From contig CBDCSU010000005.1 of NCBI GenBank assembly GCA_965221775.1, positions 441,216 through 505,215 of the forward strand: a DNA stretch of 64,000 bases, in the 5' to 3' direction. The stretch is from Candidatus Latescibacterota bacterium. GTDB taxonomy: Bacteria > Latescibacterota > UBA2968 > UBA8231. Below the pieces are notes generated by a model, which had not been told where the DNA came from, did no database searches, and was given only the letters and a program-made list of their open reading frames with translations. The position numbers and the translations under genes were made by a program. Shown one piece after another: positions 5,501 to 55,556 of the stretch (the first letter of the stretch is position 1; every line of letters starts with the position of its first letter).

Positions 5501-5660
5501 CTTCCCCGGCGCCGGGTCCGAGCTCTACCGGGGCCTGGGCAGCGTCGTCATCGGCGGCCTGCTGCTGTCCACCTTGTTCACCCTCTTCCTGGTGCCGACC
5601 TTCCTCAGCCTGGCGATGGATCTGAGAGCCTGGGTCGGCCGCGCCGGGAAGGCGATGTAG
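2517..5660 (+). CDS. efflux RND transporter permease (AcrB/CzcA family)
   Basis: The 1047-aa protein has the typical RND two-fold repeat: TM clusters with VIDNAIV and VVNNAILIV motifs and two large periplasmic loops. Confidence 0.9.
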   Translation: MRLIATAIQRPVSVTVGVLLVALFGLISLFRIPVQLTPDIDRPIITVSTVWPGASPEEVEQEIVQRQEEQLRSVEGLVLMTSESNDSRGVVSLEFNVGVDPDAVMLLVSNKLDQVFGYPLDAERPVISAGGTGPSGAITWIMLQPLPDRGDLDIERYRDFAEEVIKTALERVPGVSRSDIYGGYDRQLQVIVDPRAMAARQITVQDLARALARENANTSAGTFDEGKRRYIVRTVGQYQQPGDIEQVVVRSADGTRVTVGEIARTRLGYVRTVASVRQKGQPAIAINARRETGANVLEVMDGIRRTIGQLNEGPLAREGLYLTQVYDETDYIDSAIGLVRSNILIGGTLAVMVLFIFLRTVSSVAIIATAIPISIVGTFLAMWLLGRNINVISLAGMSFAVGMVIDNAIVALENIFRHQQMGKSRARAALDGATEVWGALLASTLTTVAIFLPIVFVEDEAGQLFRDIAIAVSCSVVLSLIVAVSVIPSLANKILGGDRRGGGRLAAWGEGVRTFIARSVFRISGSTVLRLGVIAGLIGLSVAIAWNLLPKSEYLPTGNRNLIFGIVLPPPGYNLDELIQVGQTVEDVLRPHWEAASDPDGPQARALPGPPIANMFFVAFGRSAFMGARSTEPERVRELIPIIQGPVLGGVPGTFAVVQQSSLFQRATGSGRSIDIEITGPDLDHLVGLGGRVFGQVRQVVPGAQARPIPSLDLGNPEVRILPDRVRAADLGLSARDIGSAVNALMDGAIVDGYQFQGEEIDLVLRGEEDWFRTQDIAALPIYTPRGQLVPLSAVARVEVTTGPEQINHIERDRAITVRVIPPETVPLETALDALRTEIVQPLVDSGDLAPPYQIQLSGSADDLRRTRQALQWNFLLALVITYLLMAALFESFLYPFVIMLSVPPALAGGILGLEVVNRTLTYQPLDILTMLGFVILIGVVVNNAILIVHQTLNILREAPETPLGEAIHDAVFSRVRPIFMSTITSALGMLPLVVFPGAGSELYRGLGSVVIGGLLLSTLFTLFLVPTFLSLAMDLRAWVGRAGKAM

Positions 5661-5721
5661 GGGCGACCTCCGGCGCGCGCCCGCGGATCGTCACCGCCCT
5701 CGAAACCTCAGGAGATTCCCA

Positions 5722-6789
5722 ATGCAATTCGGCCAGTTCTATCTGCTGGAAACCCCGCCCGGCAAGGACCACGCCCAGGTCTATCACGAAGCGTTCGAAC
5801 AGTTCAAGCTCATGGACGAAACGGGCTGGGACGCCATCTGGCTGGCGGAGCACCACTTCGACCACAAGGCGCCGGGAGCCAACTACTACTCGATCACCTC
5901 GTCCATCCATACCATGGCCGCGTACGCCTCGGCCATTACCGAACGCATCAAGATCGGCACCGCGGTTGTCGTGCTGCCCTTCCACAATCCCGTCATCGTT
6001 GCGGAGGACTTCGCCACCGTTGACATCATGTCGAAGGGACGACTCCTCTTCGGCGTGGGGCGCGGTTACCAGGCCGAGGAGTTCTACAACTGGGGAATCG
6101 ACCTGGAGGAGAGCCGCGACCGGTTCCAGGAAGAGCTGGATATCATCCTCAAAGCCTGGACGGGGCCGGTCGAATACGACGGCAAATTCCACAAGGTCAG
6201 GAAGGTCAACGTCATCCCGAAGCCCGTACAACAGCCCCACCCGCCGGTCTACGTTGCGGCGGTGAGTCCCTCCACGTACGAGTGGGTCATCAAGAACGGC
6301 CACAACGTCCTGACCTCCTTCCTGCACCCCTACGACGAGGTCTTCCAGCTCTACGAGTCGTACCACAAGACCGCGGAGGCATGCGGAATGTCGGGCAAGC
6401 TGGAGTTCCCCCTGGCCAGGTTCCTCTACGTGGCCGAATCCACCCAGAAGGCCCGGGAGGAGTGCCACGACCAGCTCATGTGGTACTTCCGCACCCTGCT
6501 GGCCGAGGTGATCGCGCCGCCGCCGGAAATGGCGCCTCCCGGCCAGATGGAGTTCTACCAGGGACTGAAACAGAGGTTCTCGACCATCACCTTCGACGAG
6601 ATCCTGGCCGATCACGCCATCGTGGGCGATCCGGACTTTGTCGCCGACAAGATCGGCTGGATCCAGAAACACACGGGACTGCAGAACTTCATGGGGTGGA
6701 CCCGCATCGGGGACCTGAGCCCCGACCTGGTCTGCAAGTCCCTTCGCATGTTCTCGGAACACGTCGCGCCCGCCTTCAAGGAGGATTGA
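5722..6789 (+). CDS. LLM-class flavin-dependent oxidoreductase (luciferase-like monooxygenase)
   Basis: An AGGAGA motif lies upstream of ATG 5722. MQFGQFYL...WLAEHHF...GRLLFGVGRGYQ is typical of the luciferase-like monooxygenase family. Confidence 0.85.
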   Translation: MQFGQFYLLETPPGKDHAQVYHEAFEQFKLMDETGWDAIWLAEHHFDHKAPGANYYSITSSIHTMAAYASAITERIKIGTAVVVLPFHNPVIVAEDFATVDIMSKGRLLFGVGRGYQAEEFYNWGIDLEESRDRFQEELDIILKAWTGPVEYDGKFHKVRKVNVIPKPVQQPHPPVYVAAVSPSTYEWVIKNGHNVLTSFLHPYDEVFQLYESYHKTAEACGMSGKLEFPLARFLYVAESTQKAREECHDQLMWYFRTLLAEVIAPPPEMAPPGQMEFYQGLKQRFSTITFDEILADHAIVGDPDFVADKIGWIQKHTGLQNFMGWTRIGDLSPDLVCKSLRMFSEHVAPAFKED

Positions 6790-6792
6790 CCC

Positions 6793-7191
6793 ATGTCTGC
6801 CAGCGCAAACGCACGTATCGCCCGCGAGTCCCTCGAAGCCGCCTTCGCCTCTGACTGGAAGCGCCTCCGCGAAACCTACGCCGACGACGCGACCATGGTC
6901 GGCGGCGGACTCGACATCCGCGGCGCGGATGACATGGTGGCCCTCTGGCGGGGCTGCCACGAGGAAGAGCGGGACCTGCGGCTCGAGATTCTCAACGTCG
7001 TCGCCGGCGATGAGATGGTCGCCGTGGAGTTCCGCCACAGGGGCATTGTGAACCAGCTTCTTCCCGGAATGTCCGAAACGTTGCTTGGAAAACGTCTGGT
7101 AGCGACCGAGGTGCACATGTGCCGGGTTCAAGACGGGAAGATCACCGCCGTGACCATCTATGGCGGTGTGAGCGAGACTTTCGACGTCTGA
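6793..7191 (+). CDS. SnoaL-like / NTF2-fold protein
   Basis: The 132-aa ORF starts 4 nt after the LLM stop. Its size and alternating pattern (VAVEFRHRG...EVHMCRVQDGKI) fit a SnoaL-like cyclase fold. Confidence 0.55.
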   Translation: MSASANARIARESLEAAFASDWKRLRETYADDATMVGGGLDIRGADDMVALWRGCHEEERDLRLEILNVVAGDEMVAVEFRHRGIVNQLLPGMSETLLGKRLVATEVHMCRVQDGKITAVTIYGGVSETFDV

Positions 7192-7234
7192 CGGGTCTGG
7201 CTGAATGGGGAAGCCGGCCTCCGAGGGGGAAACC

Positions 7235-8056
7235 ATGAGCGACCACACGGCCGCGCCCGTGCCGATGACGGAAGAGCAGAAGTTCTTCTACGACCTCCAG
7301 GGTTGGATCCTGTTGCCTTCGGTGCTGTCCGAAGCGGAAATCGAAGCGATGAAGGCCGAGGTCTACGACGGCGCCAGACAGAGCTACCAGGGTGCCCTGC
7401 AGGAGCTGCTGGACCATCCGGCGGTGACCGGCATCCTCACCGAACTCCTCGCGGAAGAGCCGTTCCTCGGGGACGACTACCACAGCTTCCGCTGCGAGGG
7501 CTCCTTCATCACCGTGCGGCACGCCGGCTGGAAGAGCGACGGGGAGGGCACCGGCCTGCCGCACGTGGTGCGGCCTCCGCAACAGGCCAACGCCATGCGC
7601 TACCAGGTTGCGGGCAGCAAGATCTTCTCCGGGCTCACCCGGGTGGTGTGGGAGCTTGAAGAGGTGAAAGCCGGCCAGGGGGGCACCACCTTTCTCTCCG
7701 GCTCCCACAAGGCCCACTTCAACTACGGCGGCCCCGACCCCAACCGGCCCAACATCGGCGAGTCTCCCTGGGAGGAAGGCATGCGCGCGGCCATGGCCCA
7801 GTACAGCTGCCCGCCCGGCTCGGCCATCATCTTCACCGAGAGCCTGCTGCACGCCGCCAACGACTGGCGCAACACGGACAATCCGCGCTGCGCCGTGTTC
7901 AACTGCTACAACTCCCTGTGGGCCCAATGGCACCGACTCAACCTGAGCCACGAGGTCATCGAGGCCATGCCGCCCAAGCGCCGCTCCTTGTTCCGCGGCA
8001 CGTGGCAGCTGGGCGGAGAGAATCACGCCTATTCGCTGGACAATCGTTCGATCTGA
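7235..8056 (+). CDS. phytanoyl-CoA dioxygenase (PhyH) family Fe(II)/2OG oxygenase
   Basis: ATG 7235 has a GAGGGGG Shine-Dalgarno motif; the ORF-track start at 7205 has none. FYDLQGWILLP, FLSGSHKAH and IIFTESLLHAA are PhyH-like motifs. Confidence 0.7.
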   Translation: MSDHTAAPVPMTEEQKFFYDLQGWILLPSVLSEAEIEAMKAEVYDGARQSYQGALQELLDHPAVTGILTELLAEEPFLGDDYHSFRCEGSFITVRHAGWKSDGEGTGLPHVVRPPQQANAMRYQVAGSKIFSGLTRVVWELEEVKAGQGGTTFLSGSHKAHFNYGGPDPNRPNIGESPWEEGMRAAMAQYSCPPGSAIIFTESLLHAANDWRNTDNPRCAVFNCYNSLWAQWHRLNLSHEVIEAMPPKRRSLFRGTWQLGGENHAYSLDNRSI

Positions 8057-8076
8057 ATGGCGAGGAGAGGTCCAGG

Positions 8077-8547
8077 ATGGACTGGAACCGGCTCTCCCCT
8101 TTCGTCGAAACGCCGCTCCGGGCGTGCCTGGCGATCGTGGCCGTCAACGCGGCGCTGATCCTGGTCTCCGAGCCCATCTTCCAGGCTCTCGGGGTCGTCT
8201 CCAGCGGGTGGGCGGCCGATCAACAGCTCGCTTCCGCCTTCTTCCTCTTCCTGCTCTTCGTCGCCGGTTCGATCGGCGTGTGGCATCTCTTCGGGCGCCT
8301 GCTGCGAGGCCGCTTCACGATCGTGCAGCGCCTGTCCACCGCCGCCGTCGGAGTCCTTCCCATCATCGCCGCCGCCTGGCTCGCCGAGGCCCGCGCCGAA
8401 GGCGCCATGTGCGGAATCCTGGGCGCCTATGTGACCGGTGTGGGCGCCGGCGTGACGGCCTTTCTCACGGTTATGATCGCCAGCGGCATCGACCCCCGCT
8501 TCGACCTGGACTCCGGCGGCCGGCGATCGCCCACGCCCTCCGCCTGA
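8077..8547 (+). CDS. hypothetical membrane protein (about 4 TM segments)
   Basis: ATG 8077 lies inside ORF 7918..8547. The sequence is hydrophobic and helix-rich (ACLAIVAVNAALILV, FFLFLLFVAGSIGVW, AAVGVLPIIAAAWL, VTGVGAGVTAFLTVMIA). I recognise no family. Confidence 0.45.
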   Translation: MDWNRLSPFVETPLRACLAIVAVNAALILVSEPIFQALGVVSSGWAADQQLASAFFLFLLFVAGSIGVWHLFGRLLRGRFTIVQRLSTAAVGVLPIIAAAWLAEARAEGAMCGILGAYVTGVGAGVTAFLTVMIASGIDPRFDLDSGGRRSPTPSA

Positions 8548-8560
8548 TCCACCCTGCCCC

Positions 8561-11763
<3,203 letters not shown>

Positions 11764-12408: not shown

Positions 12409-14760
12409 ATGGAATTCGTCGACAACGACTATTGGTGGAAGAGCCTGGTCCTGGACTGCCCCGAGGGCGCGGCGGACCTGACGGCGCGGGTCCAGGTGCG
12501 CCAGCCCCAGGGATACGTGCAGGAGCTGACGGTGGACGAGGTCGAGGTGCGCGGCGGCAAGGCCCGCGTCCCCATCCTCTATCCGCTGGTCGACGACGGG
12601 CGCTACGACCCCAAGCACGGCTTCTGGCAGGAGGGCTGGGTCATGGGCGAGTACCGCTTCGACGTGCAGCTCATGGCCGGGGACCGCATGATCGCCGCCG
12701 AGACCACCACCCTCGACGCCAGGAGCTTCTTCCCCTCCGACCGCTGGCTCATCGCCGTCGACGCCCGGCCGCAGATCATCGAGTGCGCGCCCCGGCAGGC
12801 CCTGTTCGTCGACGAGGACGAGGCCCGCTTCCTCTACCGCATCCGCCGTCACCGCGTCAGCCGCTGCGAGGTGGAGGTGGACGTCACCACCCGCGAAGGC
12901 ACCGTCCCCCTGGCCGGCCCCTGGCGCCTGGAACTCACCCACGAGCTGCAGGAGCACTCCTTCTCCATCGCCGGGTGGGGCACCGGCGAGTACTGGATCC
13001 GCCTGCGGCCGGTGGTGGAGGGCGAGCCCGTGGGCCCTTGGTGCGTGCGCAAGATCTGGAGGCAGGTCGACGCCGGTCCGGCGCCGCCGGAGGTGCTGGA
13101 GCTGGCCGGCTATCCCGAGGTGCTGGTCGACGACTACAGCTTCGACGAAGTCGAGGGCATCCAGTTCGTCCCCGACACCCTGGACAAGAGCCCCGGGCCC
13201 CTGGCGGCCACCACCGAGCCCCACGACGAGGAGATGCTGCGCATCGAGTCGATCGGCTGGAACCAGGAGGCCGGGCGCTACGAGGCGGTCTACGCAAACA
13301 GCGGCGGACGGGTCGAGCGCAAGGAGAGGCGCGAGGAGCTGAGCCGCCTGCGCATGCTGCAGGTCAGCGAGGACGGCGTGAGCTGGGAGAAGCCCTCCCT
13401 CGGGCTCGTGGAGTACGACGGCTCGACGGCCAACAACATCCTCAGCGACGAGCCCGAACCCACCCCCGCGCAAGAGGAGACCGCCCACGCCCTGGAGCAC
13501 GCCGAGTTCCGCTTCTACGACGCCGAGAGGGACGGCCCCGTCGACCTGGACCGCGTCTTCATCGCCTCGGCCAAGGAGGACTTCCCCTTCGACTGCAGGA
13601 GCCTCCAGGGCGACGCGGACGAGGAGACCGAGGTCTTCCGCCCCACCAAGGGGGAGTTCTGGTCCCTCGAGCAGCGCGGCGACCTCTACCTCGTGCTCAC
13701 GCGGGAGCCGGTCCTCTACCTCGGCGTCGGCATGGATCTGATGCACACGAGCGAGACGATCCGCTGCCACGTGGAGGAGTCGGACGGCGGGCGCCTGCAC
13801 TTCTACTTCCGCCCCGCCTCGCCCGCCTACCTGCCCCACGGCGTCACCTACGACAACATGCACCTGGCCCTGCGCTGCCTGGCGGTCATGTCCACCGCCG
13901 ACGGCATCACCTACGAGCGCCGCTTCGTCCTGGGGCCCGACGGCCACGACCGCCTGGGGTCGCAGTTCTACGCCATGGGGCTCATGCAGCGTCTCGGCAC
14001 GACGGGCGACGCCCCGGGCCGCACCGTGCTGGCCAGGGGGAAGCACAAGATCAACCAGGCCTTCCCGCGGCGGAACCTCTACCTCGGCTCGGTGCTGCTC
14101 CACTGGGGGATCGAGCAGACCCAGGAGCCGGAGCTGATCTGGACCCGCGACCTGCTGCACTTCAAGCGCTTCACCCGGCACCGGCGCAGCCTCATCGAGT
14201 CCAACGGCCCGGGCTCCTACGACTTCGGCATGATCCGCGACCAGTACAAGTACAGCGAGTTCGGCGGCCAGTGGTGGTACTACTACACGGCGATCAACAC
14301 CCGCCACAACGGCTACGGGATCATGGCGCGGGAGACGGACCTGGACGAGCTGCGCCGCACCCGCCCCAACCACGCCGAGGCCCCCTACTTCACCACTTGG
14401 GAGGGCTACTGGGCCGACGGCAAGCAGACGAAGTACCAGCCGGCCTGCGCCCGCTGCCGGCCCTTCCGAGTGGCCCACGCCGAGCCCGTCGACGGCAGCG
14501 GCCGCCTCCTCACGCGCCCCATCCGGGTGGACGGCGACGAGCTGCGCCTCAACGCGGCCACTGATGGGGGCGGCTCCATCCGCGTCGAGCTGACCGACGA
14601 AGCGGGCGAGCCCCTGGGACCGGAACCCGCCATCTTCGAGGGCGACGACGTGGACGCCGTGGCGGCCGACCTGGCCCCCTGGCGCGGACAGGCGGTGCGC
14701 CTGCGGTTCACCCTCGACCGGGCCCGCCTCTACGCCTTCCGGATCGCCCCGCGGGAGTGA
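12409..14760 (+). CDS. large GH-like beta-propeller protein with N-terminal beta-sandwich region and C-terminal beta-sandwich (family unassigned)
   Basis: GGGGAGGA lies upstream of ATG 12409. The central and C-terminal parts are paralogous to the 25425..26972 protein (SEDGVSWEKP-type blades; RLNAATDGGGSIRVEL vs RLNADASGGTIAVEL tails). No signal peptide is present. Confidence 0.45.
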   Translation: MEFVDNDYWWKSLVLDCPEGAADLTARVQVRQPQGYVQELTVDEVEVRGGKARVPILYPLVDDGRYDPKHGFWQEGWVMGEYRFDVQLMAGDRMIAAETTTLDARSFFPSDRWLIAVDARPQIIECAPRQALFVDEDEARFLYRIRRHRVSRCEVEVDVTTREGTVPLAGPWRLELTHELQEHSFSIAGWGTGEYWIRLRPVVEGEPVGPWCVRKIWRQVDAGPAPPEVLELAGYPEVLVDDYSFDEVEGIQFVPDTLDKSPGPLAATTEPHDEEMLRIESIGWNQEAGRYEAVYANSGGRVERKERREELSRLRMLQVSEDGVSWEKPSLGLVEYDGSTANNILSDEPEPTPAQEETAHALEHAEFRFYDAERDGPVDLDRVFIASAKEDFPFDCRSLQGDADEETEVFRPTKGEFWSLEQRGDLYLVLTREPVLYLGVGMDLMHTSETIRCHVEESDGGRLHFYFRPASPAYLPHGVTYDNMHLALRCLAVMSTADGITYERRFVLGPDGHDRLGSQFYAMGLMQRLGTTGDAPGRTVLARGKHKINQAFPRRNLYLGSVLLHWGIEQTQEPELIWTRDLLHFKRFTRHRRSLIESNGPGSYDFGMIRDQYKYSEFGGQWWYYYTAINTRHNGYGIMARETDLDELRRTRPNHAEAPYFTTWEGYWADGKQTKYQPACARCRPFRVAHAEPVDGSGRLLTRPIRVDGDELRLNAATDGGGSIRVELTDEAGEPLGPEPAIFEGDDVDAVAADLAPWRGQAVRLRFTLDRARLYAFRIAPRE

Positions 14761-16048: not shown

Positions 16049-19000
16049 ATGCAATGGGCGGCCCAAGCAGCAGTCTTGGGCCTGGTCGGCGCTCTCGCCT
16101 TTGGCGCCTGTGGCCGCGATTCTCCGCTGGGGGGCGCCGGGGGGGTCGCCATCCCAGATGCCAACCTGCGCGCGGCCATTGCAGGCGCCCTCGGCAAGTC
16201 GGGAGAGGCGCCGATCACCGTCGACGAGATGGCGTCCCTGACGCGCCTTGGCGCATCAAGCTCAGCCATTCGCGATCTGACCGGACTGGAATTCGCAACC
16301 AGCCTGACGCGGCTGTCTCTTGGCGACAACTCCATTTCGGACTTGACGCCTCTCGCCGGACTGACCAACCTGACCGATCTGTGGCTTTGGGACAATGATC
16401 TCTCGGATTTGGCGCCGCTGGCCAGGTTGACAAACCTGACGCGGCTGATCCTCTCCAGCACCGGTGTCTCGGAATTGGCGCCTATCGCCGGCCTGACAAA
16501 CCTGACGGAACTGTCTCTCGGCAATAGCGCCCTTGCGGATCTGACCCCCCTCGCCGGACTGACCAGCCTCACACGGCTGTCCCTCGGCGCAAACTCCATT
16601 GCGGACCTCACGCCCCTCGCCGGGCTCACCAGCCTGACAGGGCTGTCCCTCGGCGCAAACTCCATTGCGGACCTCACGCCCCTCGCCGGGCTCACCAGCC
16701 TCACATGGCTGTCCCTTGGCGCAAACTCCATTGCGGACCTCACCCCCCTCGCCGGACTGACCAGCCTGACAGGGCTGTCCCTGCCTGACAACAGCGTCTC
16801 GGACCTGACACCCCTTGCCGGGCTGATCGAACTGAGGAGGCTGGAACTTGGCGACAACTCCATCGTGGATCTGACACCCCTCGACGCGCTGACCGAACTG
16901 ACCGAACTGCGCCTCGAGAACAACAGTATCTCGGACCTCACCGGTCTCGACGGGCTGACCAACCTGGCAAGGCTGTATCTCAACGTGAACTCCATTGCCG
17001 ATATCGCCCCCCTCGCGGGGCTGACCAACCTGGCGACGCTCTGGCTTGGCGACAATGAAATCTCCGACTTGACGCCTCTGGCGGGACTGACAAACCTGAC
17101 CGAGCTGCGGCTCGAGAACAACAGCATCTCGGATCTCGCGCCGTTGGTGGAAAATACGGGACTGGGCTTGGGAAACTGGATCGATGTGCGGGGCAACCCG
17201 CTGAGCGACAGATCGATCAACACTCACATTCCGGCCCTTCAAGCCAGAGGGGTGATCAGCGATGGCGATGGAGGGGAGACGCCCCTTTCCATGCCCGACG
17301 CTGCACTGCACGCGGCCATCGCCAACGAGATTGGCAAGGCGAGCAACGAGCCGATCACCGCCCGTGAGATGACGGCTTTGGATCACCTTTTCGCGCTCGA
17401 GTCGGATATTCACGAGTTGACGGGGCTCGAGTACGCGATCAACCTGACAACACTGCAGCTCTATGGCAACCGCGTCTCGGACCTGACGCCCCTCGCCGGG
17501 CTTACCAACCTGGAAGAGCTCTATCTTCGCCGCAACTCCATTGAGGATCTGACACCGCTCGCCGGGCTGACCAACCTGACGGAGCTCTACCTTTACCACA
17601 ACAAGGTCTCGAATCTGACACCGCTCGCCGGATTGACCAGCCTGACCGAACTGGACCTCGACTACACCGGCGTCCGGGATCTGACGCCCCTCGCCGGCCT
17701 GATCAACCTCAAAGAGCTCCATCTTCGCACCAACTCCATTGCGGACCTGTCCCCTCTCGCCGGACTGGTCCAACTGACGACGCTCTATCTCTCATACAAC
17801 AACGTCTCGGATCTGACACCGCTTTCTGGATTGACCAACCTGACGGAACTGGAGCTTGACTTCAACGGCCTCTCCGACCTGACACCCATCGCTGGATCGA
17901 CCAGCCTGACCGAACTGGACCTTGAAGGCAACGCAGTCTCCGACATCCGGCCCCTCGTCGGCCTGACCAACCTCATCACCCTGAAGCTCGGCGGCAACTC
18001 TATCTCCGAGGTGCCCGCCGGGTTGTTCGCAGGCTTCGCTGACCTCGAAAGGCTTGATCTGGCCAGCAACCCGGGGGCCCCCTTCGCCTTCACCCTCGAA
18101 CTCGAGCGCACGGACACGGCCAACCGGCTGGCTCCAGCCCCCGCCGGTGTGGCGGTGCAACTGGCGGAGGGAGCACCGTTCGAGATGACCGTAGCCCTGT
18201 CGGTACACAACGGCTCGGCCTCGGTTGCCTCGCTAACGATCGGCGCCGGCGACACCACAAGCACCCCAACCCAAGTCACGGCGCCCGGCGGCTCGTCAAC
18301 CGCGACTCATGTTGTCCTGGACCATGGGCCTCTGATTCCCAGCGGGTTCACGGGCGTTGAGGTTTTCACCGGCAGCCCGCTGGTTCTCTTCGCCGAATCC
18401 GACGACCACTTTCCGGTGGCCGAAGCAGAGATTCCACCTCACGTCCTGCAAGTGGGTGGCCCGAAGCCGGCACTGGACGTGAGAGCGTACTTCTCGGACG
18501 CCGACGGCGACGAACTGGTGTACTCGGCGACGTCGAGGGACGACCACCTGGTCGGCACCCGAGTGAAGGGGGGCATGGTAACCTTGACCCCCCGTGCGGA
18601 AGGCCATGCTTTGGTTGCCGTTTCCGCGACCGATCTCAATGGATGGCGCGCATCCCAGGAGTTTCCCGTAACGGTGCTGTCGGCTCCCGATCCTCATTCC
18701 TTCGACATCGACCTCGTATTCGTCGGGCCCACTACGGAGGACTTCCGTTCAGCGGCCCTCCAGATGGCAGAGCGCTGGACCGAAGTCATCACGGACGACC
18801 TGCGGGATGTCCCCGTACCCGACAACACCGTCGATTGCCCGTGGGAACATCGTTTCCATGGGACCGTGGATGATCTTGTGGTCTTCGTGGAAGTCGAGTC
18901 CCTCACTCGTGCTGCGGGGATCGCGGATCTGTGCCGGACGCGCGACAGGTATTCCCCATACAAGGCAAGGAGGTACCCGGGGCACCTGGGTTCCTCCCTG

Positions 19001-19510
19001 CCCCTTATGGGGTACATTGCACTGGACACGGATGTGGTGGCCCGGGGCACAGAGGCCTGGGGCAGGGAGCGATTGGAGCAGGTGATCCTTCACGAGATAG
19101 GACATGTCCTGGGAATCGGGACCTCATGGCATGATTTCGGCTTTGTGCAGGACAGCGGCGGCTCCGACCCCCACTTCAACGGCCCGCTGGCCATAGAGGC
19201 CTTCGACGCGGCCGGAGGCACGAACTACACGTCAGGGGCAAAGGTGCCCGTCACCTCCCGCGGAAGCCATTGGAGATTCTGGGGCGAACTCATGTCCCCA
19301 AGTGGCAGCCCCGCTCTCAGCGCCATCACGGTTCAGTCCCTGGCCGATCTCGGCTATGTCGTCGATGTCAGCCGCGCCGACCCGTTCCAACTGCCGGGCT
19401 CGGCCAAGGCGATTGCGGGACCGGGCCTCGATCTCCACGACGACATCCTCCAGGGGCCGATAGAGGTGGTCGACGAGGCTGGGCACGTCGTCCGCGTGAT
19501 CCACCGATGA
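16049..19510 (+). CDS. lipoprotein with two internalin-like LRR modules, an Ig-like region and a C-terminal leishmanolysin-like (M8-type) zinc-metalloprotease domain
   Basis: ATG 16049 begins MQWAAQAAVLGLVGALAFGAC, which has a lipobox. There are about 13 plus 10 22-residue LRRs (LTxLxLxxNxIxDLTPLAGLT), each block with an N-cap (IPDANLRAAIA...; MPDAALHAAIA...). HEIGH lies at 19091-19105, followed by GSHW...ELMS. The upstream part of ORF 15023..19510 is not coding in this frame. Confidence 0.8.
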   Translation: MQWAAQAAVLGLVGALAFGACGRDSPLGGAGGVAIPDANLRAAIAGALGKSGEAPITVDEMASLTRLGASSSAIRDLTGLEFATSLTRLSLGDNSISDLTPLAGLTNLTDLWLWDNDLSDLAPLARLTNLTRLILSSTGVSELAPIAGLTNLTELSLGNSALADLTPLAGLTSLTRLSLGANSIADLTPLAGLTSLTGLSLGANSIADLTPLAGLTSLTWLSLGANSIADLTPLAGLTSLTGLSLPDNSVSDLTPLAGLIELRRLELGDNSIVDLTPLDALTELTELRLENNSISDLTGLDGLTNLARLYLNVNSIADIAPLAGLTNLATLWLGDNEISDLTPLAGLTNLTELRLENNSISDLAPLVENTGLGLGNWIDVRGNPLSDRSINTHIPALQARGVISDGDGGETPLSMPDAALHAAIANEIGKASNEPITAREMTALDHLFALESDIHELTGLEYAINLTTLQLYGNRVSDLTPLAGLTNLEELYLRRNSIEDLTPLAGLTNLTELYLYHNKVSNLTPLAGLTSLTELDLDYTGVRDLTPLAGLINLKELHLRTNSIADLSPLAGLVQLTTLYLSYNNVSDLTPLSGLTNLTELELDFNGLSDLTPIAGSTSLTELDLEGNAVSDIRPLVGLTNLITLKLGGNSISEVPAGLFAGFADLERLDLASNPGAPFAFTLELERTDTANRLAPAPAGVAVQLAEGAPFEMTVALSVHNGSASVASLTIGAGDTTSTPTQVTAPGGSSTATHVVLDHGPLIPSGFTGVEVFTGSPLVLFAESDDHFPVAEAEIPPHVLQVGGPKPALDVRAYFSDADGDELVYSATSRDDHLVGTRVKGGMVTLTPRAEGHALVAVSATDLNGWRASQEFPVTVLSAPDPHSFDIDLVFVGPTTEDFRSAALQMAERWTEVITDDLRDVPVPDNTVDCPWEHRFHGTVDDLVVFVEVESLTRAAGIADLCRTRDRYSPYKARRYPGHLGSSLPLMGYIALDTDVVARGTEAWGRERLEQVILHEIGHVLGIGTSWHDFGFVQDSGGSDPHFNGPLAIEAFDAAGGTNYTSGAKVPVTSRGSHWRFWGELMSPSGSPALSAITVQSLADLGYVVDVSRADPFQLPGSAKAIAGPGLDLHDDILQGPIEVVDEAGHVVRVIHR
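16562..16759 (+). repeat. three near-identical 66-bp tandem units (LRR-coding)
   Basis: Units 16562-16627, 16628-16693 and 16694-16759 differ at only 2-6 positions. Flanking LRR units are much more diverged. Confidence 0.9.
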
Positions 19511-23185: not shown

Positions 23186-23613
23186 GCCCCGTGGCCTCCC
23201 CTCCTCCCCCCATTTCGGACGACTCCTTCGGCCGCTTCCTCCTCGAGGAGAAGCTGATGGGCAGCCGCTGCGCCGGCTGCGGCGCCCTGCACGTGCCGCC
23301 GCGGGCGATCTGCCCGGAGTGCCGCGGCACACGGATGGCCTGGGAGCAGGTGAAGGGCACGGGCACCCTCGCCGCCTTCACCTGCATCGCCATGGCCACC
23401 CCCGCTCTGCAGGCCGAGGGCTACGGCCGCGACAACCCCTTCTGCACCGGCGTCGTCGCCCTGGACGAGGGCCCGCGGGTGGTGGCCCGGATCGAGGGGC
23501 TGGACACGACGCGGCCGGAGGAGATCCGCCTCGGCACGCCGCTGCGGGTGCGGTTCCTGCGCCGGGGCGAGGGGGAAGAGGAGCGGGGGGTGCTGGCTTT
23601 TTGTGTAGGGTAG
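23182..23613 (+). CDS. Zn-ribbon/OB-fold protein (DUF35 family, thiolase partner)
   Basis: ATG 23182 overlaps the thiolase stop (ATGA). CAGCGALHVPPRAICPECRG is a rubredoxin-like zinc ribbon, followed by an OB-fold region. Confidence 0.8.
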   Translation: MSPVASPPPPISDDSFGRFLLEEKLMGSRCAGCGALHVPPRAICPECRGTRMAWEQVKGTGTLAAFTCIAMATPALQAEGYGRDNPFCTGVVALDEGPRVVARIEGLDTTRPEEIRLGTPLRVRFLRRGEGEEERGVLAFCVG

Positions 23614-23677
23614 GAGGACCCGCAAGTTGGGTCTTGTTCCTGCGGGGGCATATCTTGCCGGTCGCCGCCAGACAGAA

Positions 23678-24151
23678 ATGAAACCGTCGGTCTACATCGA
23701 GTCATCCATGGTCGGTTACTTGGCCTCCCGCCCCAGCCGGGACGTAGTCGTGGCGGCTCGACAGGCGATTACTCACGATTGGTGGACCAACCACAGACAT
23801 CGATTCGAGCTTCGGGTTTCGGCGCTCGTCGAGGCGGAGATCTCCCGTGGTGACGAGGAGGCAGCCAGACGGCGTCTGGATTGGATCACCGGTATTCCAA
23901 GCTTGGCCATCTCCCAGCAGGCAGCCGACCTGGCAAGGCATCTGTTGTCTGAGAAGGCCATTCCGGCCGGCCATGAGGACGACGCGTTGCACATCGCAAT
24001 CGCCACTGCTCAGGGTGCTGACTTCATCCTGACATGGAACTTCCGTCACATGAACAATGCGGAGATGAAGTCGATAATAGCGAGAGTTGTAGAGTCTCAC
24101 GGATTCACATGTCCGCAGATCTGCTCACCTGAAGAGCTTGGAGGACTCTGA
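23678..24151 (+). CDS. PIN-domain toxin (VapC-like)
   Basis: ATG 23678 lies inside ORF 23627..24151. SVYIESSMVGYL..., DDALHIAIATAQGADFILTWNFRHM and a C-terminal ICSPEEL match a widespread PIN family as I recall it. The gene lies in a low-GC islet. Confidence 0.7.
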   Translation: MKPSVYIESSMVGYLASRPSRDVVVAARQAITHDWWTNHRHRFELRVSALVEAEISRGDEEAARRRLDWITGIPSLAISQQAADLARHLLSEKAIPAGHEDDALHIAIATAQGADFILTWNFRHMNNAEMKSIIARVVESHGFTCPQICSPEELGGL

Positions 24152-24152
24152 G

Positions 24153-24323
24153 ATGATTGACGATCCAGTGGTCGAGGAGATTCGGGAACACCGCAAGGCC
24201 CACGCTGCCGAGCACGGCAATGACCTTGAACGTATTGTGCAGGACCTCCGCAAGCGCGAACGGGAGTCCGACCGGCCCTTGCTGAATCCGGGGCCAAGGC
24301 AATTGGACCCGACCAGGAGATGA
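24153..24323 (+). CDS. small (56-aa) putative antitoxin/partner of the PIN protein
   Basis: ATG 24153 lies 2 nt after the PIN stop, with a GGAGGA motif at 24140-24145. MIDDPVVEEIREHRKAHAAEHGNDLERIVQDLRKRE resembles the small helical partners encoded downstream of this PIN family (recall, not searched). Confidence 0.5.
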   Translation: MIDDPVVEEIREHRKAHAAEHGNDLERIVQDLRKRERESDRPLLNPGPRQLDPTRR

Positions 24324-25411
24324 GTCGAATCAGCCAGATCCTGCCTCCAGAAGTGGTTGCCGCGATCACCCAAGATGACTTCGATCCGAAGCTGTCCGCG
24401 TTCATTCAAGGTTGGGCGAGAACGTCCGGTCCTTTCTCCCGGTATCTGCACGCAAACCGCCTGAAGGTTTCGAAGAAGCTGCGCAAGGCGAAGACGAACG
24501 AGGACCAGCGGGACGTCGGCTTGGAACTGTACGCCGCTTGCTCGTTCTTGTCCGCTGGTGCCTCCGTCATCTATGAACCGAGAGCGAAGGGTCCCGATCT
24601 TCTTGTCTCGATTGACGGCTTGGAGATGTATGTCGAGACAAGACGCGTGCGGGAGAGGGAGGCCACGTTAGGATGGGTGGAGGTTTCCAGGCGACTGCGA
24701 CGGGAGATAGAGCCACACCTGCGGAACCAGTATGTCTTCTTGGGAATCATCGCCTCTGATCACAATCTCAGATGGCGAGGAATATCGCGGCCATCCTTGG
24801 AAGTAATCTTGGAGAGGTACAAAGAAACAAGGGCGTTCATTCTTGCGCAGGTCTCGACCCACCAAGGCGACGAAGTACGGATCCCGGTCGATCCCCTGCC
24901 AGAGGGATTCGCCAAGCTGATAGTTCGGAGGCATCACGAGTCTGTGTTTTCTGTGATGTACCCTGAAGCGGAAGGCAATGGACCCTCCAAACTGCTGCGC
25001 ATCGCCTGCGAGAAGTCACGGCAGGTCGTTCAGGGGCACGTCAACTTTGTCGTGGTGTGGATCGATGCGGGTGGCGAGATGTGCGACGACTTTGAGAACT
25101 CCTTAGGGCAAATTGAGCATGGATTGCGCGAGGAGCCTGATCGCTTCGCAGAGCGCATGGGATATGGATCACCAAGTCATGCCGAAGAATGTTGGCAGGC
25201 CTGCAGTGCACTCCTTGTCCGCGATGCCTGGGGAGATGACCCGCTGCCCCGAACGTCAGCTCCTGAGTGCAGCGGGTTTCTTCGTCACGATTTGGGACAA
25301 AGGCAGCTGTACGAGAACCGGCGGGCCAATCCGCCCTTGCCGGATCGCCTGCTGGAGCTTGTCCGGCAGAGTGCCCGGGTACCATTTCGATCTTTGACGC
25401 CTGCGGCATAG
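24320..25411 (+). CDS. hypothetical 363-aa protein with a possible PD-(D/E)xK nuclease-like core
   Basis: ATG 24320 overlaps the previous stop (ATGA). I recognise no family. LELYAA...KGPDLLVSIDGLEMYVETRR resembles the E...D...E-x-K/R strand pattern of the restriction-endonuclease fold. Confidence 0.45.
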   Translation: MSRISQILPPEVVAAITQDDFDPKLSAFIQGWARTSGPFSRYLHANRLKVSKKLRKAKTNEDQRDVGLELYAACSFLSAGASVIYEPRAKGPDLLVSIDGLEMYVETRRVREREATLGWVEVSRRLRREIEPHLRNQYVFLGIIASDHNLRWRGISRPSLEVILERYKETRAFILAQVSTHQGDEVRIPVDPLPEGFAKLIVRRHHESVFSVMYPEAEGNGPSKLLRIACEKSRQVVQGHVNFVVVWIDAGGEMCDDFENSLGQIEHGLREEPDRFAERMGYGSPSHAEECWQACSALLVRDAWGDDPLPRTSAPECSGFLRHDLGQRQLYENRRANPPLPDRLLELVRQSARVPFRSLTPAA

Positions 25412-25424
25412 GTCCGAGTAGCCT

Positions 25425-26972
25425 ATGACCTCCGCCACCGCTGGCAGGGCCCCCTCGCCCCACGACACCGGGATCTACCCGGCGCGGACCCACCTGTTCC
25501 TGGACGACCACTACGTCGCCCGCCTCGACGGCCTGCGGCGCCTCCCCGGACCGGTCACGCACGCCGCCAGCGGACCGGTGCTGGAGCCGGAGGCGCCCTG
25601 GGAGGGGCTCGGGCTCATCGGCCGCAACGGCATCCTGTGGGACGCGGACGAATCCCGCTTCAAGTGCTGGTACCCGGCCTACGACCCGGCCCTGCCCGCT
25701 GAACCGGTAGGGGCCCGGCGGCGGTGGGCGTACGCCGAGAGCGCCGACGGCGTCCGCTGGGAGCGGCCCGATCTGGGGCTGACCTCCTTCGCCGGCTCCA
25801 CCGCCAACAACCTGCTGCGCCTGGAGGGGCTGGAGGAGTCGGCGGCGGTCCTGTGGAGCGTCGCCAAAGACCCGGACGACCCCGACCCGGGGCGGCGCTA
25901 CAAGGCGATCGGCATGGACCGCCACCCGCGGCGGCCCGGCGAGCCGGCCTGGACCGGGCCCGACGGCGAGGACGAGTGGTACCGCAGCCAGGGACGCCAC
26001 ATGGGCTGCGGCGTCTTCATCGCCTTCTCGGCCGACGGGCTCACCTGGCGCCAGCGCGAGGGCTGGGCCGGGTCCGGGGCCCTGATCATGGACAACTCCA
26101 TCCTCCACGGGTACGACCCCCAGACCCGGCGCTGGGTGCTGTGGCAGCGGCCGCGGATCCTGCCCAAGCACCGGGTCATCGGCGTCAGCTTCTCCCCCGA
26201 CTTCGAGGACTGGACCTTCCCCGAGTGCGTCCTCGTGCCGGACGAGGACGATGCGCCGGACACGCAGTTCGACCAGCTCTCCACGGTGGCCGCCTCCGAC
26301 GGCGGCTTCGTGGGGCTCCTGTCCGCCTCCTCGGAGGTGCGCGCCGACCGCGGCGTGACCGACATCGTGCCGCAGCTCGTCTACTCCCGCGACGCCCGGC
26401 GCTGGACCCGCGTCGACCGCGGGCCCTTCCTGGCTCCGAAGGGGCCGCCGCCGACCTGGGACGACGGCTGCATCATCCCCTTCAACCCGCAGGTCGTCGG
26501 CGACGAGGTCTTCATCTTCTACTACGGCAAGAACGCCGGCCACATCTGGGGCGAGCCCACCGCCGATGGCCGTGTGACCCGCTCCGCCTTCGGGGTGGTG
26601 AAGCTGCGCCGCGACCGCTGGGCCGCCCTGACCCCCGCGGCCGGCGGCTCCGCGGGCGGCGGCGAAGGCACCCTGACCACCACCCTGATCAGCTTCTCCC
26701 GCCCGGAGCTGCGCCTGAACGCCGACGCCTCGGGCGGGACCATCGCCGTGGAGCTGGTGGACTGCCAGAGTGGCCTGGCGGTGCCCGGCTTCGGCCTGGA
26801 CGACTGCGACCCGGTGCAGGGCGACTCCCTGGACCATCGGGTGAGTTGGCGCGGGAGCAGCGACCTGTCGGCCGTCGTCGGCACCGGGAGCCGCCAGCCG
26901 CGGGTGGGCCGGGCCCTCGTGATCCGTGCGCGCCTCAGGGACGGCGCCCGGCTCTACGGGATTTCCTGCTGA
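25425..26972 (+). CDS. GH-like five-bladed beta-propeller protein with C-terminal beta-sandwich (family unassigned)
   Basis: Blade-like motifs are AESADGVRWERP, AFSADGLTWRQ, SFSPDFEDWTF and YSRDARRWTRV. The tail FGVVKLRRDRWAAL...RLNADASGGTIAVEL resembles the 12409 paralog. No signal peptide is present. Confidence 0.45.
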   Translation: MTSATAGRAPSPHDTGIYPARTHLFLDDHYVARLDGLRRLPGPVTHAASGPVLEPEAPWEGLGLIGRNGILWDADESRFKCWYPAYDPALPAEPVGARRRWAYAESADGVRWERPDLGLTSFAGSTANNLLRLEGLEESAAVLWSVAKDPDDPDPGRRYKAIGMDRHPRRPGEPAWTGPDGEDEWYRSQGRHMGCGVFIAFSADGLTWRQREGWAGSGALIMDNSILHGYDPQTRRWVLWQRPRILPKHRVIGVSFSPDFEDWTFPECVLVPDEDDAPDTQFDQLSTVAASDGGFVGLLSASSEVRADRGVTDIVPQLVYSRDARRWTRVDRGPFLAPKGPPPTWDDGCIIPFNPQVVGDEVFIFYYGKNAGHIWGEPTADGRVTRSAFGVVKLRRDRWAALTPAAGGSAGGGEGTLTTTLISFSRPELRLNADASGGTIAVELVDCQSGLAVPGFGLDDCDPVQGDSLDHRVSWRGSSDLSAVVGTGSRQPRVGRALVIRARLRDGARLYGISC

Positions 26973-27000
26973 TAGGGGCGGCGTCCGGCCGTCCGGCGCC

Positions 27001-39621: not shown

Positions 39622-41457
39622 ATGACAACGACAAGACTCCTCCCGCGATGGCTGTACGTGATGCGGTGGACCACCGCGAAGTCGCGGGAAGCCTCTCCCG
39701 CCCTGTTCGTGGCCCGCGCCGTGTTCTCGGTGATCCATGGGCTGTTCGTCGTCCTGCGCTGCCTTGCCATCTGGTGGGGGGTGGACTGGCTCATGGCGGC
39801 GATCGAGGATCCGCGGCAGAGCGGACAGATGCTGACTCGTCTGGCGCTGCTGGCGGGGGGCCTGCTGGCGACGGAGGCTGTCGGGCGGCAGATCGCCTAC
39901 TGGCTGGGTTCGCGGGCGAGATTCCACCTCGAACTGCTCTTGCGGCGCGAGTTCATCGCCAAGTCCTCGGAACTCGACCTGGTGGAGATCGAAGCGGCCG
40001 GCGAACGGGACCTGCTGAGGAACCGTCACGCCCTCGAGTACACAGCCTGCGGGGTGATGGATTCGATATACAGCTTCATCTTCCTCGGCGTGCAGGCGGC
40101 GGGGCTGGTCGTTCTCTGCACCCTGATCGGCTGGCCGATCTTTGCGGCCGCGGGGGCCCTGCTGGCCGTCCATCTCGTGAAGTGGCTGACGCGGCCGAAG
40201 GAGGATTCGGGGGTTTCGGAACGGAGCCGCTTGTCCTACCTCGAGCACTTGCTCTCAGGCCAGGATCCTGCCAAGGAGATCCGCCTCTTCGGTCTCGTCC
40301 CCTATCTCGGAGGCATGGCCGAGGAGTTGGCCGAACGGTACTACCGCAAGCAGTTGTTCACCGTCGGCGGGGCGGTCAGAAACCTGGCCTTCTACCTGCC
40401 CTTCCTGGCGATCGCCCTCGGTTTCGGCTACTGGCTCGTGGAGCAGGTGACGGCCAGGGAGATCTCCCTCGGGCTGGCCCTCATGGCCCTTGCCGTGGTC
40501 TTCATCGCTCAGAAGGCCGTGTCGGGCCTCTCCGGAATGGTGTGGGCCTGGGAAGACTCGCTGGAAGGCATTCAGGGCTACCAGGCCTTTCTCGACCTGC
40601 AACCGCAGATCCGACCCGAACCGGATCTCCCCGACGTGCCGGCCGATCTCGGCCCGGGGATCGTGTTCGACAACGTCTCCCTGACCTATCCGACGAGCGA
40701 CCAGCCTGCCGTCGAAGGGGTGTCGCTGACCATTCGCCCCGGCGAGCGCATCGCCCTGGTGGGCGAGAACGGCTCCGGCAAGACGACCTTCGTCAAGCTG
40801 CTGACCCGGCTCTACGATCCGACGGAAGGACGGATTCATCTCGGGGGCCGCGACCTGCGCGAATACAACGTGGAGACGTACCGCCGGCGCTTCGGCGTCA
40901 TCTTCCAGGACTACATGCGCTACCACGGGACGGTGGCCGAGAACATCGGCTACGCGCAGTACGACCGGCTCGACGATGCGGACGGCATCGAGGCCGCGGC
41001 TGAGAAGGCCGGTTTGCACGAGTTCATCGAGACCCTGGACGAGGGCTACCAGACCCGTGTCGGCTCCTGGTTCAAGAGAGGCACCGAGCTGTCCGGCGGG
41101 CAGTGGCAGAAGATCGCCCTGGCGCGCGCCTTCTTCCGCCACTCCGACATCCTCGTCCTGGACGAGCCGACCAGCGTCCTCGACGCCCGCGCCGAGTACG
41201 GCATCTTCCGGCGCTTCCTCGAGCTGACCGCCGGCAAGACCACCGTCCTCGTCTCGCACCGCTTCTCGACGGTGCGCATGGCGGACACGATCTACGTATT
41301 CCAACAGGGACGCATCATCGAGCGCGGCAGCCATGGGGAGCTGATGGCCCAGGACGGGCTCTACGCCGAGCTGTTCAACATGCAGGCCGAGGGCTTCCTG
41401 CTGGATGGCGGCCATCCCCCACCGGTAAGCCACCGCGCCCCGAGGCCGGCATCATGA
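39622..41457 (+). CDS. ABC transporter permease/ATP-binding protein (MsbA-like exporter)
   Basis: The N-terminal 6-TM domain is followed by Walker A GENGSGKTT, signature LSGGQWQKIALARA and Walker B ILVLDEPTS. Confidence 0.9.
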   Translation: MTTTRLLPRWLYVMRWTTAKSREASPALFVARAVFSVIHGLFVVLRCLAIWWGVDWLMAAIEDPRQSGQMLTRLALLAGGLLATEAVGRQIAYWLGSRARFHLELLLRREFIAKSSELDLVEIEAAGERDLLRNRHALEYTACGVMDSIYSFIFLGVQAAGLVVLCTLIGWPIFAAAGALLAVHLVKWLTRPKEDSGVSERSRLSYLEHLLSGQDPAKEIRLFGLVPYLGGMAEELAERYYRKQLFTVGGAVRNLAFYLPFLAIALGFGYWLVEQVTAREISLGLALMALAVVFIAQKAVSGLSGMVWAWEDSLEGIQGYQAFLDLQPQIRPEPDLPDVPADLGPGIVFDNVSLTYPTSDQPAVEGVSLTIRPGERIALVGENGSGKTTFVKLLTRLYDPTEGRIHLGGRDLREYNVETYRRRFGVIFQDYMRYHGTVAENIGYAQYDRLDDADGIEAAAEKAGLHEFIETLDEGYQTRVGSWFKRGTELSGGQWQKIALARAFFRHSDILVLDEPTSVLDARAEYGIFRRFLELTAGKTTVLVSHRFSTVRMADTIYVFQQGRIIERGSHGELMAQDGLYAELFNMQAEGFLLDGGHPPPVSHRAPRPAS

Positions 41458-50139: not shown

Positions 50140-50339
50140 CCTGCCAAGGGCTCCCGTAATTGCAGAAAGACCTCAACCCTCGCTTGCCCTCAAGCTATGT
50201 CATGTCTGCCGGAAGCACACCGCGCCGTTCGCGGATCGGCGCGGGAACCCCCTCGCGAATCTGCGGCCGACAGTCGAACGCCATTCCATTCCGGGCTCAC
50301 ATTTCTTCGGAGGTCGACATCTCTCTTTCGTGCTGGCAT

Positions 50340-53627: not shown

Positions 53628-53700
53628 CCGATAGGCCGCGGCTATAGAGCCGGCCGGAGTTGGGCCGAACCGAAACCGGAAAGTGGACGAGGAGACGGTG

Positions 53701-55548: not shown

Positions 55549-55556
55549 GAGCCGCT

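Follow-up and report, generated by a model that had tools for sequence, protein, structure and literature searches.

Do the genes of a short, compositionally foreign islet inside a GC-rich string of bacterial genes form one system whose products act together, or are they mobile modules of separate origin that have come to lie side by side? The question is raised by a three-gene islet at positions 23,614-25,424 of a 64,000-nucleotide (nt) stretch of a Candidatus Latescibacterota genome (contig CBDCSU010000005.1, forward strand; this whole stretch is referred to below as the window). The islet encodes a putative PIN-domain (VapC-like) toxin of 157 amino acids (aa), a 56-aa partner presumed to be the antitoxin, and a 363-aa protein. 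A preliminary description, made from the sequence alone, had treated the 363-aa protein as an orphan and had suggested that the three genes form a system of their own. The answer that we favour, with moderate confidence, is that the islet is a horizontally acquired mosaic, in which a PIN/small-protein pair and an autonomous predicted nuclease of a new PD-(D/E)xK family occupy a variable slot of an operon.

Composition and borders of the islet

The GC content of the islet is 58.2%, compared to 69.6% in the 5 kb to its left, 72.8% in the 5 kb to its right and 69.7% in the whole window, which makes it the lowest among 622 windows of this size across the 64 kb. In 200-nt windows, the GC content falls from 0.765 (23,400-23,599) to 0.52-0.625 (23,600-25,399) and returns to 0.745 (25,400-25,599), the drop and the recovery coinciding with the stop codon of a ChsH2/DUF35-type gene and the start codon of a gene for a 515-aa protein, respectively. 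The GC content at third codon positions (GC3) is 0.665 in the PIN gene, 0.702 in the small gene and 0.654 in the 363-aa gene, and 0.92-0.99 in six flanking genes, and the cassette has a GC content of 56-59% at every locus where it is present. The contrast of 58% GC with about 70-73% in the surroundings, the low GC3 and the constancy of the cassette composition everywhere together point to a foreign origin of the islet.

All three genes lie on the forward strand. The PIN gene (23,678-24,151, stop codon TGA at 24,149-24,151) is separated by a 64-nt spacer (23,614-23,677) from the stop codon of the ChsH2/DUF35-type gene, and its 3' end contains the GGAGGA ribosome-binding motif (24,140-24,145) of the small gene (24,153-24,323); GGAGG is kept in the related loci L001, L004, L005 and L006 discussed below. 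The end of the small gene (24,323) overlaps the start of the 363-aa open reading frame (24,320-25,411) as ATGA, and the sequence AGGAG lies 1 nt 5' of the ATG of the latter. On the right, a 13-nt spacer (25,412-25,424) leads to the ATG (25,425) of the 515-aa host gene, and since there is no terminator at this junction, the islet lies within a co-directional metabolic gene string made up of short-chain dehydrogenase, acyl-CoA ligase, thiolase and ChsH2/DUF35 genes, the islet and the 515-aa gene. No terminator-like site was found at the islet borders, and an Rfam scan of the window returned no RNA-family match, transfer RNA families included.

Much of the preliminary description of the islet stands. 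Its hand counts of GC (28/60, 31/60, 45/60 and 46/60) are all exact, the low-GC segment that it had bounded at 23.6 and 25.4 kb is reproduced by the computed profile and is compositionally foreign, and the reading frames and their couplings (the GGAGGA motif, the ATG at 24,153, the ATGA overlap and the 13-nt spacer) are as it gave them. It had also seen no integrase and no flanking repeat, and indeed neither an integrase nor a recombinase gene is found among the open reading frames between the flanking genes, and the direct or inverted repeats at the borders are only short, chance-level ones. The label 'GH-like' that it had given to the 515-aa gene is not confirmed: no Pfam match was obtained for this gene or for its distant paralog (about 26% identity) at 13,078-14,694 on the forward strand of the window.

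The PIN pair and the nuclease family

The PIN protein scores 22.8 bits against the Pfam PIN family, just under the gathering score of 23.6, and this weak call is backed by residues that are invariant throughout the family: E8, E54, D102, H105, W120, N121 and H124 are the same in 74 family sequences, and the window copy has all of them. The PIN homologs number 541, are typically 65-77% identical, and some of them are named VapC family toxin by NCBI; a profile search found no sequence relative of the PIN protein in the PDB. Eighty PIN loci were fetched from species-representative genomes of Verrucomicrobia, Planctomycetes, Acidobacteria, Proteobacteria, Spirochaetes and other phyla, and 79 of them had room for a downstream small gene. 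In 77 of these 79 loci, a profile of the small protein found a family member directly 3' of the PIN gene, mostly starting 5-50 nt past the end of the PIN alignment, so the order of the pair is toxin gene first and small gene second. The profile of the 363-aa family found no member in any of the 80 loci (0/80), and the genes 3' of the pair are unrelated to one another (SufB, SHMT, ISL3 transposase, FAD oxidase, GT9 glycosyltransferase, EcoRI-type methylase, sulfatase). A recurrent third gene after other PIN pairs was rejected, the candidates being SufB, SHMT, transposase and similar genes or spurious high-GC reading frames. Because the pair recurs in many phyla with the 363-aa family absent and with unrelated genes downstream, the PIN gene and the small gene are, judged from gene order, a stand-alone conserved two-gene module.

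This module resembles type II toxin-antitoxin systems of the VapBC kind in that the gene for a small putative PIN protein with conserved acidic residues adjoins a small partner gene in an overlapping or abutting frame, and in that the module is mobile, with copies dispersed among the housekeeping genes of many phyla. Unlike in VapBC, the toxin gene comes first, the PIN domain falls below the Pfam cut-off, the fourth active-site position is an invariant Asn (N121), and the partner belongs to no Pfam family and has no recognisable DNA-binding domain. The 56-aa protein is predicted to consist of two helices and a basic, proline-rich tail; searches of Pfam and the PDB with the protein or with a 20-member profile gave no match, and none of the DNA-binding domains of antitoxins (AbrB, RHH, Phd, HTH) was found in it by these searches. 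The PIN protein would be a VapC-like ribonuclease with metal-binding residues E8, E54 and D102 plus N121, acting as the toxin of a toxin-first module similar to type II toxin-antitoxin systems, and the 56-aa protein presumably binds and blocks it. In a Candidatus Azotimanducaceae genome (locus L070, 4,480-5,730), the small-protein domain appears at the N-terminus of a 416-aa reading frame whose C-terminus looks RelE/ParE-like by eye; this frame may represent a fusion or a read-through caused by extension of the open reading frame.

For the 363-aa protein, a word-indexed search gave only 14 homologs, and a later round with a profile (A2), its candidates limited by the word index, added almost nothing. 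When the profile search was made exhaustive, 409 cluster representatives (at 50% identity) were obtained with E <= 0.001, 101 of them with E <= 1e-10; by size they form one class of about 240 residues and one of about 340. Among 52 diverged family sequences, E69, D93 and E106 are invariant in 52/52, and E86, P92 (49/52), R109, R111, Q235 and N242 are nearly so; position 108 is K in 24 sequences, R in 15, including the window protein, and T in 11. The AlphaFold2 model of the 363-aa protein, built with the alignment of these 52 sequences (predicted local distance difference test score (pLDDT) 93, predicted TM-score (pTM) 0.89), shows a nuclease core preceded by a helical region at the N-terminus and followed by an alpha/beta region at the C-terminus. 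The predicted core, residues 60-143 (24,497-24,748), has the order alpha-beta-beta-beta-alpha-beta, with helices at 60-78 and 114-133 and strands at 82-85, 94-98, 101-110 and 137-143. E69 falls in helix 1, P92-D93 where strand 2 begins and E106-x-R108 in strand 3, and the proposed catalytic codons, all on the forward strand, are 24,524-24,526 (E69), 24,596-24,598 (D93), 24,635-24,637 (E106) and 24,641-24,643 (R108).

Foldseek gave local matches of this core, about 50 residues long and with E-values of 0.02-0.3, to Hjc resolvases, the homing endonuclease I-Ssp6803I (0.97) and the endonuclease domain of the R2 element at probabilities of 0.9-0.97, and to phage VRR-NUC and resolvase-like proteins at probabilities of up to 1.0; for the cleanest of these alignments, the root-mean-square deviation was about 1.5-3.6 Å, and 1.5-2.5 Å in the phage-protein library. 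Global alignments to MurA-like proteins had a TM-score of about 0.2 and were rejected as spurious. The catalytic residues of Hjc are E12, D42, E55 and K57, and measured against them the E-D-E-(K/R) spacing of the 363-aa protein is close to that of Hjc. We conclude from the model that the 363-aa protein is a predicted PD-(D/E)xK-type nuclease of a new overall architecture. It has in common with Hjc, VRR-NUC and restriction-endonuclease-like members of this superfamily the arrangement of the core, with Glu on helix 1, Pro-Asp on strand 2 and Glu-x-Lys/Arg on strand 3, and it differs from the Hjc-type nucleases in being about three times larger, with conserved N-terminal helical and C-terminal alpha/beta regions, in giving no whole-protein match in the PDB, and in the variability of the Lys position (K, R or T) within its family. 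The protein would be a stand-alone DNA endonuclease with an Hjc-like centre, most likely restriction-like or selfish, of the kind that is found in defence and toxin-antitoxin islands.

Scans of the three islet proteins against Pfam, NCBIfam, PADLOC and PHROGs returned only the weak PIN match and thus nothing for the 363-aa protein, and no model of PADLOC-DB 2.0 matches any of the three. Over the 52 family members, Pfam gave no consistent family and only scattered chance matches, and PADLOC one stray match to Cas2; searches of PDB sequences with profiles A1, A2 and A4 and with the PIN protein gave nothing credible. Searches with tblastn found nothing for the 363-aa protein in plasmid and phage collections and nothing for the family consensus in plasmids, and a scan of viral contigs for the family was likewise empty. 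Absent from all four of these family collections, the 363-aa family may reasonably be considered a candidate defence or selfish nuclease of a new kind; it is an uncharacterised and fairly large family of predicted nucleases, now defined by a catalytic signature and a confident model, with no solved structural counterpart.

The family is also found without the pair. Its distant members in loci L003, L007 and L088-L097 have neither this PIN gene nor a relative of the small gene nearby, and together with the size of the family (409 clusters) this indicates that the nuclease gene is a module independent of the pair. A scan of metagenome neighbourhoods with profile A3 yielded 7 mostly short loci. 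In L007, the gene upstream encodes a 280-aa protein with an R-x4-H motif and a weak match to Abi_2. The nearest described analogue is Uma2 (COG4636), a PD-(D/E)xK family considered a likely solo toxin near toxin-antitoxin loci and a possible one-component toxin (Makarova et al. 2009, PMC2701414). The 363-aa family resembles Uma2 as a predicted PD-(D/E)xK nuclease that occurs mostly alone yet near toxin-antitoxin genes. The analogy is one of concept and not of sequence: Pfam shows no Uma2 (PF05685) match in the window protein or 51 relatives, and the two families differ in size and architecture.

Loss of the PIN gene in close relatives

The three-gene layout is seen only in close relatives, that is, in the ten close homologs of the 363-aa gene (74-80% identity) that could be placed, all of which adjoin the small gene and also a PIN gene, a PIN remnant or the scar of a PIN deletion. 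In the window and in L001, L004, L005, L098, L099, L100 and L101, the locus sits in one and the same slot, with the ChsH2/DUF35-type gene on one side and the 515-aa gene on the other, all in genomes of about 69% GC. Two close loci, L006 and L002, are found elsewhere in genomes of about 55-58% GC, the former near an rve transposase gene and an AlpA-like gene and the latter flanked by an NgoMIV-type restriction-modification pair and a Fic gene.

Only the window and L004 have an intact PIN gene; in 8/10 loci it is dead or gone, having been inactivated in five different ways. L001, L005 and L098 have an identical internal deletion of 259 nt corresponding to window positions 23,758-24,016, between the end of codon 27 and the beginning of codon 113, which shifts the frame and removes E54 and D102. 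In L099, the gene is split by an IS66 element. In L100 and L101, the segment 23,615-24,135 is absent altogether, and no PIN gene is left. In L006, homology begins at 24,058, and the last ~30 PIN codons remain; an insertion-sequence fragment as the cause of this truncation was not confirmed by Pfam. In L002, a deletion has left the final 20 codons of an Mrr-type gene running in frame into codon 6 of the small gene. All ten relatives have the small gene, which in the L002 fusion is truncated at its 5' end by the loss of its first five codons. The nuclease gene is present in ten of ten and is intact in the eight better-covered assemblies. The ratio of non-synonymous to synonymous substitution rates (dN/dS) of the nuclease gene is 0.25-0.36 among relatives, and the gene is open wherever coverage is reasonable; that of the PIN gene, compared with L004, is about 0.22. 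The nuclease copies P0008 and P0013 (contigs L100 and L101) have the look of decayed genes but were not counted as pseudogenes, host genes being fragmented there as well and L100 having a coverage of 2.67x. By simple arithmetic, the chance that five events, placed at random in the 1737 nt that the three genes span in total, would all fall in the PIN gene is about 0.0015, which argues that the nuclease gene is selected independently of the toxin. The PIN gene is, as far as sequence comparison goes, dispensable in the close relatives.

Ahead of the small gene, within the 3' portion of the PIN gene, there are two overlapping sigma-70-like promoter matches (24,029-24,078, forward strand). These are matches to the consensus, 2 found versus 0.4 expected in shuffled sequences; the region is kept in the relatives with the 259-nt deletion and is not present in L100 or L101.

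The relatives also suggest how the islet was assembled and transferred. L004 has at the left junction an extra segment of about 1050 nt (breakpoint at window 23,665-23,669 versus L004 4,294/5,346) that carries, between the ChsH2/DUF35-type gene and the PIN gene, a complete gene (4,346-5,332) for a 328-aa protein, the C-terminal part of which is an Mrr_cat restriction-endonuclease domain (E = 2e-9). In L002 (5,158-5,978), the same Mrr gene is seen as two remnants and the in-frame fusion to the small gene. The presence of the gene in L004 and of its remnants in L002 suggests that the order of the ancestral islet was probably Mrr-PIN-small gene-nuclease. The L002 locus, in a genome of about 55% GC, further contains, just 3' of the nuclease gene, a high-GC fragment of about 235 nt from the 5' part of the 515-aa gene, which indicates that the L002 copy came with its flanks from a window-like genome. 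Compared with L001, L004 and L005, the synonymous divergence (dS) of the islet genes is 0.36-0.49, about 2-4 times that of the adjacent host gene (25,425-26,972; 0.09-0.24), which could reflect exchange of alleles at the slot or an unusual constraint. The GC3 of the islet stays at 0.65-0.69 in hosts with a GC3 of about 0.96 despite the higher dS.

The assembly that we propose is one in which the nuclease module was fused, in this lineage only, to the 3' end of the pair through the ATGA overlap, with an AGGAG motif of its own, and the joined modules would since have moved and decayed as a block. The fusion means that the nuclease is probably expressed from the toxin-antitoxin operon. Several expectations of the preliminary description can be revisited in this light. 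The PIN gene and the small gene are a true pair, as it supposed, with 77 of 79 PIN loci containing both; PADLOC gave no match to a named defence system, and the description had recognised none that would include the third gene; and 363-aa homologs are linked elsewhere to a PIN gene, its remnant or its scar, as is the case for each of the ten close relatives. Far from being an orphan, the 363-aa protein belongs to a family of 409 clusters with a PD-(D/E)xK nuclease core, and the idea of a conserved three-gene system did not hold, given its absence from the other pair loci, the distant members without the pair and the loss of the PIN gene in most of the close relatives.

Alternative relationships among the genes

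A number of observations weigh against reading the islet as a stack of two independent modules. The small gene remains under purifying selection where the PIN gene has been deleted: among L001, L005 and L098 it shows 1-2 non-synonymous versus 5-9 synonymous differences, that is, a ratio of non-synonymous to synonymous change (pN/pS) of 0.06-0.08 (binomial P of 8e-5 to 3e-3), and an antitoxin of a dead toxin should drift. In the close relatives, the small gene and the nuclease gene never lie more than 12 nt apart. In L090 (OBEQ012000097.1, 2,044-3,700), a 329-aa family member lies between a gene for a Phd/YefM-like antitoxin and a PIN gene, and in L095, a 246-aa member follows a DUF433 and DUF5615/PIN_10 pair. 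As to the nuclease itself, Foldseek found no global PDB match for the model (TM at most 0.2), and the position of the catalytic lysine, R in the window protein, is not conserved, so the nuclease activity is a predicted one. Moreover, no empty site with the ChsH2/DUF35-type gene joined directly to the 515-aa gene was found, which leaves the insertion event undocumented, and defects seen at single loci need care where coverage is low (2-3x in L004, L099 and L100) or the flanking host genes are fragmented (L101).

The first alternative is that the 56-aa protein and the 363-aa nuclease are the working pair, the small protein neutralising or regulating the nuclease in addition to the PIN protein or instead of it, and the PIN protein being a replaceable second toxin. 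The selection acting on the small gene after the destruction of its toxin, its presence in all ten close relatives and its constant coupling to the nuclease gene are what such a pair would predict. This coupling is the ATGA overlap in the window, L001 and L004; in L005, L006 and L002, the ATG is replaced by CTG, with a start five codons downstream. In L090, too, the family member directly follows an antitoxin gene, of the Phd-like type. Against this, the small-gene family is bound to PIN in the 77 of 79 loci that lack the nuclease, and no relative of the small gene accompanies the distant nuclease homologs. In L002, where the small gene is truncated and fused, and in L006, where the constraint on the small gene looks relaxed (pN/pS 0.5-1.3), the nuclease gene has nevertheless been kept. 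The small gene could also be retained as protection against addiction by PIN paralogs in the genome, or for operon regulation or ribosome loading. With evidence of this kind on both sides, we regard a working pair of small protein and nuclease as rather unlikely.

A related and equally doubtful idea is that the 363-aa family is a nuclease effector wired to PIN-type modules, sited after an antitoxin gene and controlled or neutralised by the antitoxin. It is kept in view by three PIN-linked architectures, namely PIN-small gene-nuclease in the window clade, Phd-nuclease-PIN in L090 and DUF433-DUF5615-nuclease in L095, together with the selection on the small gene after PIN loss and the conserved coupling. 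In L090, the PIN gene scores 68 bits against Pfam, the genes are joined by a 23-nt spacer and a 4-nt overlap, and the GC content of the family member is 0.44 within a locus of 0.60. Three of about eight informative contexts adjoining PIN-type modules is above the expectation for a random gene, yet it is not unusual for a resident of toxin-antitoxin or defence islands, and the three modules belong to unrelated families and have different gene orders.

It is improbable, in our judgement, that the 363-aa gene is a free-standing selfish nuclease of the homing type, which would cut sites that lack it, be copied into them by repair and drag its neighbours along. The best local fold matches, which include I-Ssp6803I and the R2 endonuclease, point in this direction, although they fit resolvases and restriction enzymes equally. 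The gene is wedged between tightly packed genes without an integrase or repeats, and in L090 it sits between the two genes of a toxin-antitoxin pair; the contexts differ, however, and have no common homing site, and neither an empty target site nor a repeated target sequence was seen. The L002 copy, with its portion of the 515-aa gene and its Mrr remnants, demonstrates that flanks have travelled, and the higher synonymous divergence of the islet genes would also be compatible with homing, but the phage and plasmid collections contained nothing.

A true three-component system, in which the PIN protein, its partner and the nuclease act together, for example as a two-effector abortive-infection module, is very improbable: the window and L004 do have all three genes in intact and tightly coupled form, and the family adjoins PIN-type modules in three independent architectures, but the PIN gene is dead in eight of ten loci, the nuclease gene meanwhile being under selection and still open in the better-covered assemblies, the nuclease is missing from all 80 PIN-pair loci elsewhere, PADLOC has no model for the three proteins and gave only the Cas2 match among the 52 members, and PIN modules of different families and orders fit co-residence in islands equally well. 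One- and three-component toxin-antitoxin systems have been anticipated (Makarova et al. 2009, PMC2701414), and the islet resembles the latter (toxin-antitoxin-chaperone and the predicted protease-Xre-toxin) in having three co-directional coupled genes, those for a toxin and a small partner among them; its third gene is a putative nuclease and not a chaperone or regulator, and it accompanies this pair only in one narrow clade.

The distinction between a mosaic and a functional unit matters beyond this locus. The destruction of the toxin gene in five ways among eleven related loci, with survival of the antitoxin-like gene and the nuclease gene, is a natural experiment on why orphan antitoxins persist. 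If it is true that the small protein gates the nuclease, the islet would represent a new toxin-antitoxin architecture, an antitoxin-gated nuclease of a new class or a two-effector toxin-antitoxin or defence system; if it does not, the islet would be an ordinary stack of mobile modules in a hotspot.

Other parts of the window vary in a similar manner. A second stretch of low GC content (0.60-0.65 in 1-kb bins) at 16,100-19,510 on the forward strand encodes a very large leucine-rich-repeat protein (LRR_4, 297 bits), the C-terminal part of which contains, by eye, a zinc-protease-like HEIGHVLG motif. The corresponding position has a leucine-rich-repeat protein in L005 and GmrSD_N and HEPN genes in L001, and because these contents differ, the stretch is another variable slot upstream of the same operon. 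Downstream of the islet, the window lacks at 26,973-27,000 (compared with L001 8,659-10,112) a gene of about 1.4 kb for a SEC-C-motif protein (449-458 aa), which lies between the 515-aa gene and an Ldh_2 gene in L001, L004, L005, L098 and L099; additional genes, including a Lambda_Bor-like one, are present at this place in L098 and L099. Shallower GC dips (0.63-0.66 in 1-kb bins) are located at 5,001-10,000, 40,001-41,000, 50,001-51,000, 53,001-54,000 and 55,001-56,000.

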